From positions 1 to 64,000 of the forward strand of contig JAHHIM010000012.1 of assembly GCA_019358915.1 (NCBI GenBank): 64,000 nucleotides of DNA, in the 5' to 3' direction. Shown one piece after another: positions 39,001-45,000 of the stretch. The DNA is from Trichormus sp. ATA11-4-KO1. GTDB lineage: Bacteria > Cyanobacteriota > Cyanobacteriia > Cyanobacteriales > Nostocaceae. The position numbers were made by a program. Position 1 is the first letter of the stretch; each line of letters opens with the position of its first letter.

Positions 39001-42000
39001 GCTTCATGTCCTAATAAAGTTGTTTCATAAACAGTACCTGTATAATAATCAAGACCACGAGCGATCGCTAAATCAATACAAAAGCGATTTTCAGAAACTC
39101 CAAGGTTACGAACACCTGTAATCACTGTTTCTAATTCAGTGACTCCCAAGCTAAATTGTTCAGCTTCAGGCAAATTTTGTGCAAGATGCTTAAGCTTATC
39201 TAATACCTCATCAACACTGCCGTTAATTTTAATAAAGTCAATAATTTTTTGAGTTTGTTCTGCTAAAATATCTTCTTTTTCTAATTGTTGTTTGACTTTA
39301 GCCTCACCGATTTTTTCCAAGTTATCAATAATACTGATACAAGATTTAATTTTATTTTCAGCAATTCCTAACGACTGAAAAAACCCTGTAAGAATTTTAC
39401 GGTTATTAATGCGAATCAGAAAATCACCAATATTAACAGCCTCAAATATCTCGGTGATAATTGCAGGCATTTGAGCATCATAAAGTAAACTGAGTTCACG
39501 CCGAGCAATTACATCAATATCACACTGGCGGAACTGGCGGAAACGCCCATCTTTTGCTCGTTCACCCCGAAAAACAACATCCATTTGGTAACGAGCAAAG
39601 GGAAAGGTTAATTCATTGAGGTGACGAGCAATATAAGCTGCTAAAGGAACTGTTTGGTCAAACTTTAAAGCTCTAGCTTCTGAACCTGTTTCTCCTGCTT
39701 TTTCTTTTTCGGCTTGCCGATTTGGTGGCAGGATAGGGTCAATACCATAAATAATATTGTCACCTTGATTTCCCTTGGCTTGCAGCACTTCTAAACGTTC
39801 TACAGCCGGAGTTTCTATAGGTGTAAATCCATAACTTTCAAAAACTCTCCGGATGGTATCTAGTAAATATAATTCCAAGCGTTTTTCGCTGGGAAGAAAT
39901 TCGGGAAACCCGCTAGGAGTTGAGAAGTTGATTTTGTCGCTTTTTGCCATGCTGATACCTGGAAAATCGTAAATTATGCAAACACAAAGTAAGGCTAGAG
40001 CCTCTGACTACAAACTTTCTACTGTAGTCGTTCTTCTTGGATAATGGTGCGTTGGTAAATTTGATGGTTTTTAAACCAGTGCCAAGTACGGGCACGATGG
40101 TTATTGTCAGGGCTAAGTAAGATCATTTCATATAAATACATTTCTGGTACTGTCTTATAAGCAAACCACAAAATAAGGGTAGAATCATCAACTTCCCAAG
40201 CTTTTCCTTGAATACGTTCTGTGTCAAACCAGAGCATTTTATCGCGATAGGTTCCTGGAAATTTATGCTCTTCTTGTTTTCCATCAGACCATTTGTAGCG
40301 ATTGATTTGATAGTAGGAATAAATGTCGTTTTCTGGAAACTGGCAGGTTAAATGAGATTGATGTTGATCAATAATTTTACCTTCTATATCTATCAAAGTA
40401 TACGTACCTACCCAATCACCCTCATGGCGGGCTAGCACTGGCATTTCTTCTCGAATATTAGACATTACACAATTCCTTGAAATAAGATTTTAGGCTTCTA
40501 TTAACCATTATCAAACCACCAAGGGTCGCTACTAGAGTTAGTTTTAATCAAAAATGCTTTTTTTCGTAAAAATCGTTTTAGTGATGCTGGCCCCATACGT
40601 GAACCACCAAGACCGGAGAATTTGAAAGAATTCTTCTCTCCTTCGTACATAATGGCAGTGAGAGCAGCATCATTAATACTAATGGCTCCTGCATCTATTT
40701 GTTGGGCAACGGCTAAAGCTTCTGCTTCTGACTCGGCAAATACTGCTGCACTTAGTCCATAAATAGAGTCGTTGGCTAAATACACTGCTTCCTCAACTGT
40801 GGAAAACGGCATCACTGGCATGATAGGGCCAAAAGTCTCTTTGGTCATCACTTTCATTGAATGGTTTACCTGGGTAATCACAGTTGGACGACACCACCAA
40901 CCTCCGCCTAATTCCTCAACTTTACCGCCACAATGAATTAATGCTCCTTTTTCGACTGCATCTAGAAGATGGTCGTTAATAATTGCGGCTTGTCTTTCGG
41001 CAATAATGGGGCCAATTTCTCCATTTTCCACTTTGGGATATGCTAACTGGAGGCGATGGGCTTTGGCTATCAGTTGATGGTAAAACTCTTCAAATATCGC
41101 TTCTGCAACGTAAATTCGCTCAATTGAGAGACATGATTGTCCGGTGTTGACTACTGAACCCCACAAAATCGCTGAAGTTGCTAATTCTAAATTGGCTGAC
41201 TCCAAAACGATCGCGGGGTCTTTTCCTCCCAATTCTAAAAAAGCTGGAATAAAGCGTCTAGCTGCGGCTTCTGCTACTTTGCGCCCTGTCGCTACACTAC
41301 CTGTAAAGCAGACTAAATCTACATATTCAATTAAAGCTGCTCCGGTGTCACCGGCTCCTTCCACAAAACTTAATACGTCACGTAAATTGGGCACAGTATT
41401 AATGGCTGTAATCAGTGGTGCTACGAAGCGGGGAGCAATTTCACTGGGTTTAACAATCACTGCACAACCCGCCAACAATGCGGGAATTGTATCAATCGTC
41501 GATAGCAACAATGGAAAATTCCACGGGCTAATCACCCCAACTAAGGGATAAGGGACTGATGTTTGTTGTAGGGCGATAAATGGAATGGCTGTATTTTTGG
41601 CTGAGTCTTGCAGTAACTCTGGTGCTAACCCACACCAACGGTCAATACTAGCCAGGAAGGAGTCTATTTCTAGTACAGAGGTGGACAATCTACCTGTATC
41701 ATTTACCAGCGCTTCTGTGAGCCGTTCTCGCCCAGATAATATGGCTTGCTTCCATTGCTGTAAGGCATCAATTCTAGCTTCTAGACCTAACTGCTGCCAA
41801 TGAATTTGCGCTCTCCGGGCGCGGTTGCATTGATGTATCAACAGCCTCGGCGGCGGCGGGAGAATTACATAGTCAAATTTTCCAGTCCGGGGATTGCGAA
41901 CTTCTATTGGTTTGGTCATTGGACATGGGGCATTGAGCATTGGGCATTGAGCTTAATCAGGGTAGAAAGCCCAAAACTACGCCCAGATATAGCACGTAGA

Positions 42001-45000
42001 ACAGCAATGTGACACATCGGTGCAGTTAGGGAAAGTTTCCAGCTTAATTTTCTACAGGTTAAATTATCCCCAATTTGGCTAAACGTTCAATAGTTATTTG
42101 TTGTGTTTGCGTGAAGTGTTGACGGTTTACTTCTTTGTCCAGCATAGTATTTGCTGGGTAAAACTGTGACTGGTTGTAACTTTGAGCGTATAGTTCAAAG
42201 CGCTGGCGTGAAAGTAAATTATTTAACCCTGGACGGCGGCGATCGCGGCGTAAAGCAGCTAGGTCAATCTCGGCAAATGCTGCCATGCTTTCGCCTGTAC
42301 TGGTTTGGGCTAGGACTATTCCGCGATGGTCAATGATTTTAGAACCACCATCGGCTGAAGCGTTGGGGATGGGATTATTAACGATACCTGCTGTATTCGC
42401 TGAAACTACGTAAGCCATATTTTCGACAGCGCGGGTAATTTTGGCTGCATCCTTCGGTGTGAGGTTCTTACCATACACTTCTGATGTGGAGTGTAAAAAA
42501 ATTTCGGCTCCCCGCATTGCCAGACACCGCGCCACCTCTGGATATAAAATTTCTTCTGATGCCAAAGTAGCCAAGTTACCAATTGCTGTCTTAGCTACGG
42601 GAAAAACGCCTTCTAAACCATAGCAATCGAGATACTTATCCCAAACATCATGAGGTGTAGGGGCAAACATAGAATTTAGCCGCCGATACCTTAAGACAAT
42701 AGCTCCAGCAGGATCAATCACAAAGCAGCTTTGAAAGTACAACCCTGGAAAGTTGGGGTCGAGTTCGTAGGCGTTACCAGCTAAAAATATTTGATGTTTT
42801 TGGGCAATTTTACCAAGTGCTTCATACTCAGCACCATCCATTTCTAGACAAGCTCTTTCTCCCCAAACAGCCAAGGATTCTCCCATAGGGAAACCTGTCA
42901 GAAAATATTCTGGTAAAACAATTAAGCGACAGTCAAAGCCAATAAAAGCAATACTAGCTGCAATTTGTTGCGCCAAGCGATTGATAGAGTTTTGCATCAA
43001 CAACCGGGCTGCTTGGCGATCGCTTGCTTGATTGACGGCATGGCAAGTAACTTGCAGTGCCAAAGCTCGAAATGAATCTATATTATCAGTGTTTGCCATG
43101 CTGGGGAAATGGGGAGTGTACTTCGACTGCGCTCAGTAACCGGGGAATGGGGAGTGTCATTAATGAATAATTCGATCACCACCCCAAAGCGATCGCACTA
43201 GTTTATCTGTCATCTCTTGACCAAACAACCGCACAGCTATTTTATTATCTGGATCACGTTCTGCGATCGCTCGACGGACAATGAAGTCACGCTCAGATAA
43301 AGCAGCACGCTCTGATTCTGCTACTGATTCAGCTTCATCTACCCAAGTCAACCACCGATCCATCATCTCATGAGCCACGTTTCTCAGTATACTTAGTGTC
43401 TCTTCCATGACTGGGCTGGTGAAACACAAACTCGTATGAGATTGGGCTTGACGAATGTAGAGAGTTTTGCTGTGATACTGCTGGAAACGTTCATCTGCAA
43501 GTAAATTCAGATATGTTTGATTCATTGGCTCGTAGTAGCGATCTAAATATTCTAGGTCAATGAATAGATCAGTACGAGGAATATAATCCATGTAAAAGAA
43601 TAGGTGTGGTACTGTAGCAAATGCATAAGCCAGATGCGGCACACGGATATGCGGTTTTAGCCAATTAGTCAGGTGCATATTACAAAAACCTGAATTAGGT
43701 TCCCGCAACCATGAATGTACTAGCCAATCCAATTCGGAACCCGAAAAAGCAGTGAGTGAACCTTGTGCATCTCCCGTCTGGGCAAAATAGCTTTGTAAGT
43801 CTTGGGTAGACGGATCTGGCTGTACCTGAAAACGATTGTCTAGTTTTTGGCGGAGTTCTTTGGTAATCCCCCATAACTGCTCAAATACGGCTGAACTGTC
43901 TAGTTGGAGTTGCTGTTCTGGCATGTTTGCACCTAATCTTGATTGGGTCACGAATGCCACCCAAATTAATCTAAACTCCAAATTTAATCATCTAACTTCT
44001 GTTAGAATTCACCAACTCTCGCCAGCATTTTTTGGAGTGCTGAGTGCTGAGTATAAACCCAGTTGCTTCATTGCTCTCTTGCATCAATACTGTCCTAACC
44101 TATGTGACTACGGCTATAAATGAAATTTTGTTTCGGACTAAGTGAAATGTCCCCAAAGTCCCATAGTCTCTAATGTGAACCAATCAGGATAAATCCTTCA
44201 AAATGGGCGTGATCTGTATGAGTAGGGAAAAATTGTTTCACGTTTGAAGTAGCAAAAATATATGGGAAAACATCAGCGTATTGGCATTCTTACTAGTGGA
44301 GGAGATTGCTCTGGTTTAAATGCGGTCATCAGGTCTGTTGTCCATTGTGCTTGTGGCAAAGGTTGGGAAGTACTAGGAATTCGTCAAGCAACTCTGGGAT
44401 TAATGGCACGTCCACCGCAATTCACAAAACTGGAAATCGACTTAGTTGACCCGTTGTTAACTTCTGGGGGAACAATGTTAGGAACCACCAACAAAGGTGA
44501 TCCTTTTGCTTTTCCTATGCCTGATGGTAGTGTATGCGATCGCTCCCAAGAAATTATTGCAGGCTATCATCAACTCAATTTAGATGCTTTGATTGGCATT
44601 GGTGGCGATGGTAGTTTGGCTATTCTCCGTCGCCTAGCCCAACAAGGCGGGATTAATTTAGTAGGGATTCCCAAAACGATTGATAATGATATTGGCATTA
44701 CTGAACATGCTATCGGTTTTGATACGGCAGTTAATATTGCCACAGAAGCACTTGATCGCTTACACTTCACGGCTGCTTCTCACAGTCGAGTCATGATTTT
44801 AGAAGTGATGGGTCGTGATGCTGGACATATTGCCATTGCTGCGGGAATTGCTGGGGGAGCAGATGTGATTTTAATCCCAGAAATTCTCTACACAATTGAA
44901 GACATTTGCTACAAAATCAAACAACGCCAAGAAAAAGGCAAAAACTATTGTCTAGTTATTGTTTCCGAGGCTGTTCGTACCCAAGAAGGTGAAACTGTCA

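Follow-up and report, generated by a model that had tools for sequence, protein, structure and literature searches.

What does a reductase of a chlorophyll-breakdown family do in a cyanobacterium, next to a hydrolase without the usual catalytic residues? The window, a stretch of 64,000 nucleotides from Trichormus sp. ATA11-4-KO1, contains a gene for a protein like red chlorophyll catabolite reductase (RCCR), followed by genes for a nitrilase-superfamily hydrolase and an aldehyde dehydrogenase (ALDH). The nitrilase superfamily is defined by a Glu-Lys-Cys triad. The operon neighbours suggest that the hydrolase may help bacteria to break down chlorophyll- or bilin-type pigment fragments. According to extracts of PMC7318184, chlorophyll turnover is on the scale of 10^12 kg per year, and in the literature searched no genetic account was found of how bacteria break down its ring-opened products.

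Gene content of the window

An earlier note on this DNA described the three genes as adjacent. They are: all are co-directional on the minus strand, with gaps of 60 nt and then 118-139 nt, and each has a Pfam match (Table 1). The fourth gene in the row, 35 nt beyond the ALDH gene, encodes a DUF3598 barrel, a module member that the note had missed. A structure model of this barrel (pLDDT 95.8) gives Z scores of 18.1 for BFA1, 14.2 for nitrobindin, 14.2 for OlmO and 12.9 for the bilin lyase CpeS, and the barrel is homologous to a double barrel found in the catabolic islands described below (HHalign 94.7%). It is worth noting that calycin barrels also include non-tetrapyrrole proteins, BFA1 and OlmO among them.

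Table 1. Features of the gene run and its surroundings (positions in the window)
Feature	Position	Strand	Evidence
RCCR-like protein, ferredoxin-dependent bilin reductase fold, 254 aa	43160..43924	-	PF06405, E 4e-24, 85.5 bits (cut-off 24.9)
Nitrilase-superfamily, amidase-like hydrolase, 346 aa	42059..43099	-	PF00795, E 1.8e-30, 106.6 bits (cut-off 23.2)
Hydrolase codon Glu64	42908-42910
Hydrolase codon Arg140	42680-42682
Hydrolase codon Asp151	42647-42649
Hydrolase codon Ser181	42557-42559
Hydrolase codon Lys216	42452-42454
ALDH	40501..41940 (probable start 41919)	-	PF00171, E 7.5e-103
DUF3598_N barrel, single, ten-stranded, calycin-type	40019..40465	-	PF12204
hisS (histidyl-tRNA synthetase), inside the gene run	38562..39950	-	PF13393
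DUF4437 cupin-type protein	37629..38531	-	PF14499
Cyclic amidohydrolase, hydantoinase/allantoinase-like, candidate imidase	36095..37618	+	metal-ligand motifs intact
Asp/Asn beta-hydroxylase-family oxygenase, loosely associated	35031..35831	-	PF05118
NADPH-dependent quinone/alkenal reductase, MDR family, loosely associated	33782..34789	-	family/profile matches

The catalytic centre of the hydrolase

In alignments to NitFhit (1ems) and to aliphatic amidases (2plq/4lf0/2uxy), Glu64, Arg140 and Ser181 fall on the catalytic Glu, Lys and Cys; the canonical triad is absent from the window hydrolase, as the earlier note had claimed. The replacement (E-R-S below) was also said to be fixed across its clade, and it is better conserved than claimed: all 65 distinct clade members from the fetched loci have it, as do all 32 members from one proteobacterial order (three of these 32 also belong to the set of 65). 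The clade spans Cyanobacteriota, Actinomycetota, Pseudomonadota, Chloroflexota and Myxococcota at 47-64% identity, and all the substitutions are conservative and fixed. Among the 120 listed close homologues, a set that includes the window's own sequence, Glu, Arg and Ser each occur in 120; the count for Arg is thus as previously given, and that for Ser is raised from 119. The E-R-S hydrolases are monophyletic (SH-aLRT 99), with a sister group that has either E-K-C or E-K-A. A haloarchaeal sister protein carries Ala at the nucleophile site, so this branch of hydrolases tolerates loss of the nucleophile. No E-R-C intermediates were found among the sequences aligned here (the 65- and 32-member sets and the sister group), a sample that differs from the 73 distant representatives of the earlier note; the gradation from E-R-S through E-R-C to E-K-C described there may still hold.

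Two further residues are fixed as well. Asp151 is invariant and occupies the column of the second Glu of the amidases (Glu142), where Asp is likewise found in six of six sister rows. Lys216 is present in all 65 clade copies, whereas five of six sister rows have Trp. Ser181 is encoded by TCN in 61 and by AGY in four members of the larger set, and inside the one proteobacterial order by TCN in 12 and AGY in 20 of the 32 sequences; conservation of the other serines ranges from 0.03 to 1.0. The hydrolase model is poor (pLDDT 60), and its top Foldseek matches, of the alpha-beta-beta-alpha fold, all belong to the nitrilase superfamily. Calling the protein a nitrilase, as was done before, puts it in the wrong branch, since the solved proteins nearest to it are aliphatic amidases and formamidases; in CDD it presumably resembles the uncharacterised nitrilase subgroup cd07582. 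This pattern of conservation supports a non-canonical hydrolase under strong selection. The protein is probably an active enzyme, and may be a serine-type amidase.

Genes that travel with the hydrolase

The hydrolase is found in 20 of 301 cyanobacterial genomes including Trichormus, and one of the other 19 has a fragment only. In these 19 genomes, an ALDH gene adjoins the hydrolase in 17 and an RCCR-like gene in six, and an intact RCCR-like gene is present anywhere in the genome in seven. Outside cyanobacteria, one of 10 actinomycete and none of 36 proteobacterial hydrolase genomes have one. As most hydrolase genomes lack an RCCR-like gene (12/19 cyanobacterial, 9/10 actinomycete, 36/36 proteobacterial), the link between hydrolase and tetrapyrroles is indirect. 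Each of the three genes has been lost independently of the others. Seen from the reductase, the hydrolase follows in 27 of 43 cyanobacterial RCCR loci, and the paralogue that precedes it can be of either type (Glu at the E154 site in nine, Ala, Val or Gly in 19). The "conserved three-gene unit" of the earlier note therefore holds from the RCCR side and fails from the hydrolase side. The stable module consists of the E-R-S hydrolase, one ALDH subfamily and the DUF3598 barrel, which was located at most 10 kb away in 19 of the 35 stretches inspected, and this module mostly occurs without RCCR.

The statistic that had placed RCCR-like genes near carbon-nitrogen hydrolases and ALDHs in many genomes appears to mix non-orthologous families. 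None of 37 non-cyanobacterial RCCR loci has an E-R-S hydrolase within 10 kb, and a 560-aa tandem E-K-C nitrilase occurs there 18 times. The ALDHs of these islands are 26-35% identical to the window ALDH, as against 49-59% for ALDHs beside E-R-S hydrolases in other phyla. Judged by these identities, the window ALDH is of the subfamily that accompanies E-R-S hydrolases in different phyla; its ELGGK and GQSC motifs are intact, and its best NCBIfam model is PRK09407 (346 bits, below the cut-off of 521). Of the remaining genes, hisS is probably a passenger (18 of 43 cyanobacterial RCCR loci versus 0 of 37 others). The DUF4437 protein is also found beside actinomycete and proteobacterial E-R-S copies, the beta-hydroxylase-family oxygenase in five of 43 cyanobacterial RCCR loci, and the MDR-family reductase recurs at E-R-S loci in three groups.

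The reductase and the catabolic islands of heterotrophs

The RCCR-like gene is single-copy in the Trichormus genome. Its product matches Arabidopsis RCCR (3agb, E 1.6e-12), and the profile also matches HY2, PebB-type and PebA structures. An acid is presumably expected in RCCR at both the Asp291 and the Glu154 sites of the Arabidopsis protein. Asp224 occupies the former, with Asp there in 113 of 113 copies, while in the alignment to Arabidopsis RCCR the window protein has Ala101 and no acid at the latter; elsewhere this site has Glu in one cyanobacterial paralogue class, and Asp at or beside it in the second heterotroph class. The solved relatives of the reductase all act on tetrapyrroles, according to the structure matches and the available part of PMC10151467. 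The portions of PMC2716323, PMC9306834 and PMC10151467 at hand report no ferredoxin-dependent RCC reduction by a bacterial RCCR-like protein; the first of these does report induction in hormogonia for one of the N. punctiforme paralogues.

The reductase is part of another module, an upper one, which heterotrophs have in full, with a Rieske oxygenase, an esterase, usually two RCCR-like genes and several barrels. Outside cyanobacteria, RCCR-like genes adjoin the tandem nitrilase within a large catabolic island that holds these families together with an imidase, an alkylmaleate hydratase and lyases. In the 37 non-cyanobacterial loci, Rieske genes are found in 30, esterases in 30, barrels in 35, at least two RCCR-like genes in 26, LeuC/D in 14, HMGL in 19, CoA-transferase III in 21 and isochorismatase or maleate-isomerase families in 15. 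The two island Rieske copies scanned both lack a PaO match (PF08417) and have Rieske and VanA_C only; the best structures are SxtDIOX (the top PDB match), SxtT and NdmA. The island esterase is a serine hydrolase (GHSAGG in 29/31) that scores 15-18 bits for Chlorophyllase PF07224, short of the 26 bits of the cut-off, and resembles PETases just as much. The Mg-dechelatase SGR (PF12638) was matched in none of 32 island genomes, in a scan whose controls were likewise blank.

In many Nostocales, and in a single Myxococcota genome, the upper module is joined to the E-R-S module. As an example, about 55 kb of genome G125 contains three RCCR-like genes, Rieske oxygenase, esterase, tandem nitrilase, E-R-S hydrolase with ALDH, CpeT/CpcT barrel, DUF1838, DUF3598 and hydantoinase, with about 10 kb of unrelated genes intervening; genome G537 has both modules at separate sites, and in Trichormus the island orthologues are present and scattered. 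Common to both modules are orthologues of one cyclic amidohydrolase and lower enzymes of the alkylmaleate type. Identity of the window amidohydrolase is 53-69% with 12 copies from the RCCR islands of heterotrophs and 58% with three from actinomycete E-R-S loci, and proteobacterial E-R-S loci without RCCR again contain LeuCD, ICL/PEPM lyase and isochorismatase. The wider contexts of the module genes are those of uptake and catabolism (TonB, ABC, MFS, GntR, lyases). For the RCCR-like family, breakdown of tetrapyrrole-like compounds is at present the explanation that best fits this context. The first proposal, of genes that serve a small-molecule pathway and do not encode a chlorophyll enzyme acting by itself, is supported, but given the family's gene context the contrast with pigment breakdown was drawn too sharply. 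The island provides a setting for the cyanobacterial RCCR homologues, which had long lacked an explanation (PMC2716323, in part), and supplies candidate genes in culturable strains of Parahaliea maris, Actinomadura kijaniata and Nostoc.

Proposed function and alternatives

Our tentative reading, a little short of an even chance, is that the window encodes a lower module that deals with the pyrrole fragments left by tetrapyrrole breakdown and includes a predicted serine-type amidase, probably active. The locus would be a cyanobacterial piece of a mobile network that degrades ring-opened tetrapyrroles (bilins, chlorophyll catabolites) and their small pyrrole products. The RCCR-like reductase would saturate a bridge of the linear tetrapyrrole using ferredoxin, a barrel would bind or cleave the product, the ALDH would oxidise a formyl or semialdehyde group, and the cyclic amidohydrolase would open an imide or lactam (maleimide, hematinic acid, pyrrolinone). 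The E-R-S enzyme may then hydrolyse the resulting amide, a substituted maleamate or BOX-type acetamide, releasing ammonia. Heterotrophs would go on to hydrate and cleave the alkylmaleate by LeuCD and either CoA-transferase with an HMGL-type lyase or an ICL/PEPM-type lyase. Island-type CoA-transferase, maleate isomerase and ICL/PEPM lyase were not found in the Trichormus genome with island queries; lacking this carbon arm, Trichormus would therefore gain nitrogen or detoxification only. In the hydrolase, Ser181 would be the nucleophile with Glu64 kept, the longer Arg140 may pair with the shorter Asp151, and Lys216 could serve as a base or as a carboxylate anchor. Given this pathway, serine acyl-enzyme catalysis is about evenly balanced, catalysis without a covalent intermediate is possible at a clearly lower probability, and a non-catalytic role is rather unlikely. 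Doubtful as a whole is the widest version, in which an undescribed bacterial pathway mineralises chlorophyll- and bilin-derived tetrapyrroles as far as ammonia and central acids, exists in full in Anaerolineae, Halieaceae, actinomycetes and Myxococcota and in part in Nostocales, and has one C-N step carried out by the first serine-nucleophile, relocated-lysine member of the nitrilase superfamily (Ser181/Lys216/Arg140/Glu64/Asp151 for Glu-Lys-Cys).

Nicotinate catabolism uses FAD monooxygenase, alpha/beta hydrolase, isochorismatase and maleate-isomerase families. All of these are carried by the islands, and it is possible, though unlikely, that hydrolase, ALDH and barrel degrade a non-tetrapyrrole N-heterocycle (a pyridine, pyrimidine, purine or cyclic imide derivative) by a maleamate-type route, the RCCR-like protein being a Nostocales-specific neighbour or a reductase re-used for a small ring. 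The module is mostly without RCCR, the genes next to it in proteobacteria encode isochorismatase, PuuE-like deacetylases, FAD oxidase, amidase and CoA ligase, and the island Rieske is closest to heterocycle oxygenases. However, no scanned neighbour reaches the curated equivalog cut-off of any known heterocycle pathway, the modules meet independently in Nostocales and G125 and share the orthologous amidohydrolase, and CpeT/CpcT, DUF1838 and DUF3598 barrels recur.

Two further readings concern the hydrolase and its partners. The E-R-S protein might be a pseudoenzyme that binds a pathway intermediate or the ALDH, as carrier, scaffold or regulator, since two of three triad residues are changed, an E-K-A sister exists, the ALDH link is tight (17/19), RCCR islands already hold a canonical tandem nitrilase (in G125 next to the E-R-S copy), and a Cys-to-Ser change abolishes Lnt turnover (PMC3850990, in part). 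We regard this as improbable: the replaced residues are invariant and without drift, Ser is kept across disjoint codon sets while other serines vary, and Glu64, Asp151 and the new Lys216 are all fixed around cleft positions. Even less probable is a dedicated three-step pathway of reductase, hydrolase and ALDH, for example for making or modifying a specialised cyanobacterial metabolite. Tight co-directional spacing, the RCCR-hydrolase order in 27/43 loci and the induction in hormogonia would fit such a pathway, but either paralogue may precede the hydrolase, each gene is lost independently, and the wider contexts are all of uptake and catabolism.

Comparison with known systems

The window reductase shares with plant RCCR a PF06405 match above cut-off and the residue at the Asp291 site, and differs in having Ala for Glu154. 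In heterotrophs, in keeping with the plant PAO/RCCR step, RCCR-like genes are adjoined by a Rieske oxygenase and an esterase; the bacterial Rieske gives no PaO-family match in the copies scanned, and the islands often contain two divergent RCCR-like genes and a full lower pathway, which is missing in plants.

The maleamate (nic) and alkylmaleate/citramalate routes employ NicF, NicE, DmdAB, dimethylmalate lyase and citramalyl-CoA lyase, and maleamate-type enzymes serve pyridine catabolism too. The same enzyme families are found in islands and at E-R-S loci, as family or subfamily matches only (LeuC, LeuD/DmdB and HMGL pass); the entry enzymes differ, and no equivalog cut-off for these routes is passed by the island or E-R-S-locus genes scanned. 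Maleimides, hematinic acid and BOX compounds are documented breakdown products of chlorophyll and heme in the available part of PMC7318184.

Branch-2 aliphatic amidases and formamidases (Geobacillus pallidus amidase 2plq/4lf0, aliphatic amidase 2uxy, AmiF 5g3o/2e2k) are the best profile (E 1e-22) and fold matches of the hydrolase, which like them keeps the first catalytic Glu and the motif spacing. Lys134, Glu142 and Cys166 of the amidase correspond to Arg140, Asp151 and Ser181, the second change matching the E142D mutant structure 4lf0, and Lys216 is extra and clade-specific; the hydrolase is below the curated amidase/formamidase cut-offs (NF009803, 59.9 vs 406; NF009802, 44.5 vs 427). For Ser at the nucleophile position, the excerpted PMC3850990 describes E. 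coli Lnt C387S, which forms the acyl-enzyme and has no activity, and a natural superfamily member, the mycobacterial Lnt paralogue BCG_2279c, of the membrane acyltransferase branch, which does not compensate for Lnt, appears inactive as such and has Cys-to-Ser as its only reported triad change. The E-R-S clade, in contrast, consists of soluble proteins from five phyla in which several changes have become fixed together. Since Glu-Lys-Cys defines the superfamily and the Lnt precedent for Cys-to-Ser is inactive, such a clade, with its fixed alternative centre, offers a direct test of whether this fold can carry out serine or non-covalent chemistry.

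The window locus

The genes of the window locus are tightly spaced, with successive intergenic gaps of 60, 118–139, 35, 68 and 30 nt from the RCCR-like gene (red chlorophyll catabolite reductase family) to the DUF4437 gene. Homologues that carry names come from Nostocales and other filamentous cyanobacteria. The window genome has one RCCR-like gene and one hydrolase of the clade discussed below; BAB76722.1, which is all5023 of Nostoc PCC 7120, is an orthologue of this hydrolase. Scans of the locus for promoters and terminators gave no signal above chance, no exact match to the NtcA-type consensus was found upstream of the operon, and the plasmid collection gave no RCCR-like match. 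The hisS gene lies within the catabolic run in 18 of the 43 cyanobacterial RCCR loci among the best 80 of 372 confirmed loci, and may serve as an anchor for insertion and retention of the module.

Genes of the window locus (positions in the window)
Gene	Position	Strand	Remark
RCCR-like gene	43160-43924	-	254-aa protein, in the operon
Carbon-nitrogen hydrolase	42059-43099	-	Glu-Arg-Ser (E-R-S) site
Aldehyde dehydrogenase (ALDH)	40501-41940	-	beside the hydrolase
DUF3598 barrel	40019-40465	-	after the ALDH
hisS	38562-39950	-	3' of the DUF3598 gene, followed by the DUF4437 gene
Hydantoinase/allantoinase-like amidohydrolase	36095-37618	+	beyond the DUF4437 gene
Beta-hydroxylase, then MDR reductase			beyond the amidohydrolase

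An altered catalytic site

The earlier note described Glu64-Arg140-Ser181 in the hydrolase in place of the usual Glu-Lys-Cys (E-K-C) triad; the site is real, and the case for it is stronger than was claimed. In an HMMER alignment with NitFhit, Ser181 takes the column of the nucleophilic Cys and Arg140 that of the Lys, and the best match of the clade profile is to aliphatic amidases (E 1.4e-22). Each of the three residues is found in 120/120 close homologues (the best 120 of 5786 matches), in 65/65 distinct clade members (from 102 distinct hydrolase sequences of the fetched loci) and in 32/32 clade members of one proteobacterial order, 3 of which overlap with the 65. A further change had been overlooked, namely an invariant Asp151 at the column of the amidases' second glutamate, Glu142. 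Lys216 is also present in 65/65 clade members, where 5/6 sister rows and NitFhit have Trp, and Asn109, Tyr111 and Ser143 are likewise specific to the clade. E-R-C intermediates, which the note had reported, were found neither among the 102 distinct hydrolases nor in the proteobacterial set. The clade is monophyletic in a quick tree of 60 rows (SH-aLRT 99) and includes Cyanobacteriota, Actinomycetota, Pseudomonadota, Chloroflexota and Myxococcota; its sister group is E-K-C, with E-K-A in one haloarchaeal protein. For Ser181, 61 of the 65 members use a TCN codon and 4 an AGY codon; the corresponding numbers in the one proteobacterial order are 12 and 20. These codon sets are more than one step apart, so the serine itself is under selection. 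The AlphaFold model (mean pLDDT 60, C-terminal half unreliable) supports the fold alone, and no active-site geometry was derived from it.

Other identities of the hydrolase were considered and rejected. It is not a degenerating pseudogene, given the absent stops, the invariant site and the codon switching, nor an ordinary Nit/omega-amidase, as scores fall far under the cut-offs. Separate clades in the tree rule out orthology to either half of the tandem nitrilase described below.

Some relatives have other alterations. A sister-group hydrolase with Glu-Lys-Ala, and so without the nucleophile, lies alone among unrelated genes on a Haladaptatus halobius plasmid (L109:11995-13101). More distant relatives at three loci (L260-L262) have Asn at the Lys column and no Cys, in a region where the alignment is uncertain. 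The protein at locus L121 scored highly solely because it is present in the profile, and was placed in the sister group; genome G126 (locus L120) is among the sampled rows, and no claim is based on it.

Which genes travel together

The three-gene unit of RCCR, hydrolase and ALDH proposed in the earlier note stands in part when viewed from the RCCR side in cyanobacteria, and fails when the hydrolase is the starting point. The loci compared are the best 80 among 372 confirmed RCCR loci: 43 are cyanobacterial, 3 of these (L042, L053 and L074, 'uncultured bacterium') being so classed by gene content, and 37 are others. Within this set the E-R-S hydrolase occurs in 27 of the 43 cyanobacterial loci, always at most two genes away, and within 10 kb of the RCCR-like gene in 0/37 of the others. 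Instead, 18 of these 37 have a 560-aa tandem nitrilase (e.g. L014:2008-3690, with 17 relatives), a fused pseudo-dimer in which the N-terminal domain is E-K-C and the C-terminal domain degenerate. This nitrilase is about 25% identical to the E-R-S hydrolase and belongs to a separate clade. The window ALDH is 26-35% identical to ALDHs of the non-cyanobacterial RCCR loci and 49-59% identical to those adjoining E-R-S hydrolases in other phyla. Because the tandem nitrilase and the ALDHs of the non-cyanobacterial loci differ from the enzymes of the window, the Pfam-level neighbour count for the three families appears to mix non-orthologous enzymes.

The hydrolase is present in 20 of 301 cyanobacterial genomes, including that of the window. 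In the 19 others it is adjoined by ALDH in 17 and by RCCR in 6, and an intact RCCR-like gene exists anywhere in 7. Copies with 53-61% identity occur in 10 of 151 actinomycete genomes. RCCR-like genes were found in one of these ten, on a different contig, and in none of 36 proteobacterial genomes with the hydrolase clade, where the positive control was detected; among the cyanobacterial, actinomycete and proteobacterial genomes taken together, many are drafts of unstated completeness. The stable module is hydrolase and ALDH, often with DUF3598, and the RCCR-hydrolase-ALDH unit is lineage-limited.

The RCCR paralogue preceding the hydrolase has Glu at the E154 site (Arabidopsis numbering) in 9 cases and Ala, Val or Gly in 19, including the window. 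In four Nostoc loci (L036, L040, L043 and L046) a divergent NmrA gene separates an RCCR gene of the Glu type from one of the Ala/Val type, after which comes the hydrolase; other strains retain one or other copy of the pair. The arrangement matches the side-by-side RCCR pair known from N. punctiforme.

Catabolic islands in heterotrophs

Outside cyanobacteria, RCCR-like genes lie in a large catabolic island, in Anaerolineae, Halieaceae, actinomycetes, Myxococcota and Spirochaetales. Counts for its content are lower bounds, from 37 loci out of the best 80 of 372, each truncated at 10 kb or at a contig end. At least 35 of the 37 have unknown barrels, 30 a Rieske oxygenase, 30 a serine esterase, 26 two or more RCCR-like genes, 22 GntR, 21 a CoA-transferase III, 20 an SDR, 19 an HMGL-type lyase, 18 DUF3891, 15 an isochorismatase or maleate-isomerase family member, 14 LeuC/D and 12 a cyclic amidohydrolase. 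In these islands (L008-L085, e.g. L015:9995-13652) the Rieske gene lies between RCCR-like genes of two divergent classes that share about 20% identity. An acid is present at the E154 site in one class and absent from the other, which suggests a heterodimer or reductases that act in sequence. Among cyanobacterial loci, L024 combines a Rieske gene with both classes.

The route of the island and the window is probably not the plant pathway, because the Rieske oxygenase is not of the PaO family (no match in the 2/2 island copies scanned) and the esterase scores under the Chlorophyllase cut-off. A search of the island genomes for SGR was blank, as were its controls. The island SDR could not be linked to chlorophyll b reductase, as each match was either an SDR-MFS fusion or an unrelated long SDR, and the profile of the island double barrel matched nothing in the PDB. 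Fusions of this SDR to an MFS transporter are frequent in other bacteria (P0429-P0466). A transcriptome of Rigifila ramosa, a heterotrophic protist, contains a bacterial-type RCCR-like protein (P0130) with 42% identity to that of the window, either a transfer or prey contamination; weak relatives are found in haptophytes (P0378, P0410).

The window is tied to the island by its amidohydrolase, by barrel homology and by a genome with both modules. The window amidohydrolase shares 53-69% identity with the 12 copies in islands and 58% with three found beside E-R-S hydrolases in actinomycetes. The DUF3598 barrel (model pLDDT 95.8; Z 18.1 to BFA1, 14.2 to nitrobindin, 12.9 to CpeS) and the double barrel of the island are homologous (HHalign 94.7%). 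Genome G125 combines the two modules in one interrupted stretch of about 55 kb, which also has a CpeT/CpcT barrel and DUF1838 along with TonB receptors and a hydantoinase; genome G537 has both modules at separate sites. Isochorismatase, LeuCD and an ICL/PEPM lyase appear once more at some RCCR-free proteobacterial E-R-S loci. The window genome contains scattered orthologues of the island esterase (50%), DUF1838, a VOC-like protein and SnoaL, and with the queries used no island-type CoA-transferase, maleate isomerase or lyase was found in it.

Further genes of this genome (G000) deserve mention. Directly past the MDR reductase, at window 30382-33665, lie the urease accessory genes ureE and ureG and a formamidase-like gene, so that nitrogen-salvage genes adjoin the island. 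The esterase orthologue stands alone, adjoining an NAD(P)H-binding protein (G000:C36:462399-464105; L104:7400-9106). A further stretch, which may be another cluster for tetrapyrroles or secondary metabolites, lies at G000:C5:88071-94005 (L105:8072-14006). It has a tandem pair of Rieske oxygenase genes (44% and 40% identity to island Rieskes), a gene of the coproporphyrinogen III oxidase family, one that is ATC_hydrolase-like and an FAD oxidase, with an ABC exporter after them.

A possible role in tetrapyrrole breakdown

The relatives of the window reductase with solved structures are RCCR and bilin reductases. In the window copy the acid at the Asp291 site is retained, as in 113/113 copies, and the Glu154 site has Ala; both positions have catalytic roles in RCCR. 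Mineralising substituted five-membered rings such as maleimides requires an imidase, amidases, an alkylmaleate hydratase and malate lyases. According to parts of PMC10151467, tetrapyrroles are the substrates of known enzymes with the reductase fold, and parts of PMC7318184 give maleimides, hematinic acid, propentdyopents and BOX compounds as products of the oxidative breakdown of chlorophyll and heme. Since the reductase fold, these products and the island enzyme set fit together, the window quite possibly contains a lower module for pyrrole fragments of tetrapyrrole breakdown, every chemical step of which we infer. The module would act on a pyrrole-derived amide and aldehyde, with the reductase coupled to it in Nostocales and nitrogen recovery or detoxification as the benefit; in RCCR-free bacteria it would serve for scavenging small products. 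Bilins and chlorophyll are equally likely as the source.

A route for a non-tetrapyrrole heterocycle is rather less likely. It is improbable that the hydrolase is a pseudoenzyme. Passages of PMC3850990 on E. coli Lnt do argue against catalysis by E-R-S, as the C387S variant formed the acyl-enzyme yet was inactive, and an Lnt paralogue with a natural Cys-to-Ser change did not compensate; selection on Ser181 speaks for function. A pathway dedicated to the three genes would accord with their proximity in cyanobacterial RCCR loci, and is very doubtful given the many hydrolase genomes in which no RCCR-like gene was found.

Relation to known systems

In the passages concerned, cyanobacterial RCCR homologues are recorded without function or operon analysis (PMC2716323), RCCR is taken as a streptophyte innovation (PMC9306834) or serves as an outgroup (PMC10151467, PMC11879140), and All5022 is mentioned solely in lists of generic ALDH candidates (PMC2242806). 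On phycobilisome breakdown, the relevant part of PMC6722726 reports partly degraded chromophores and no enzymes. Within open-licence PMC and bioRxiv, the scope of the search (subscription literature and bioRxiv supplements lie outside it), no description of the operon, the island or the E-R-S site was found. The hydrolase is a novel form within the known nitrilase superfamily, and the pathway to which it probably belongs would, if confirmed, be new.
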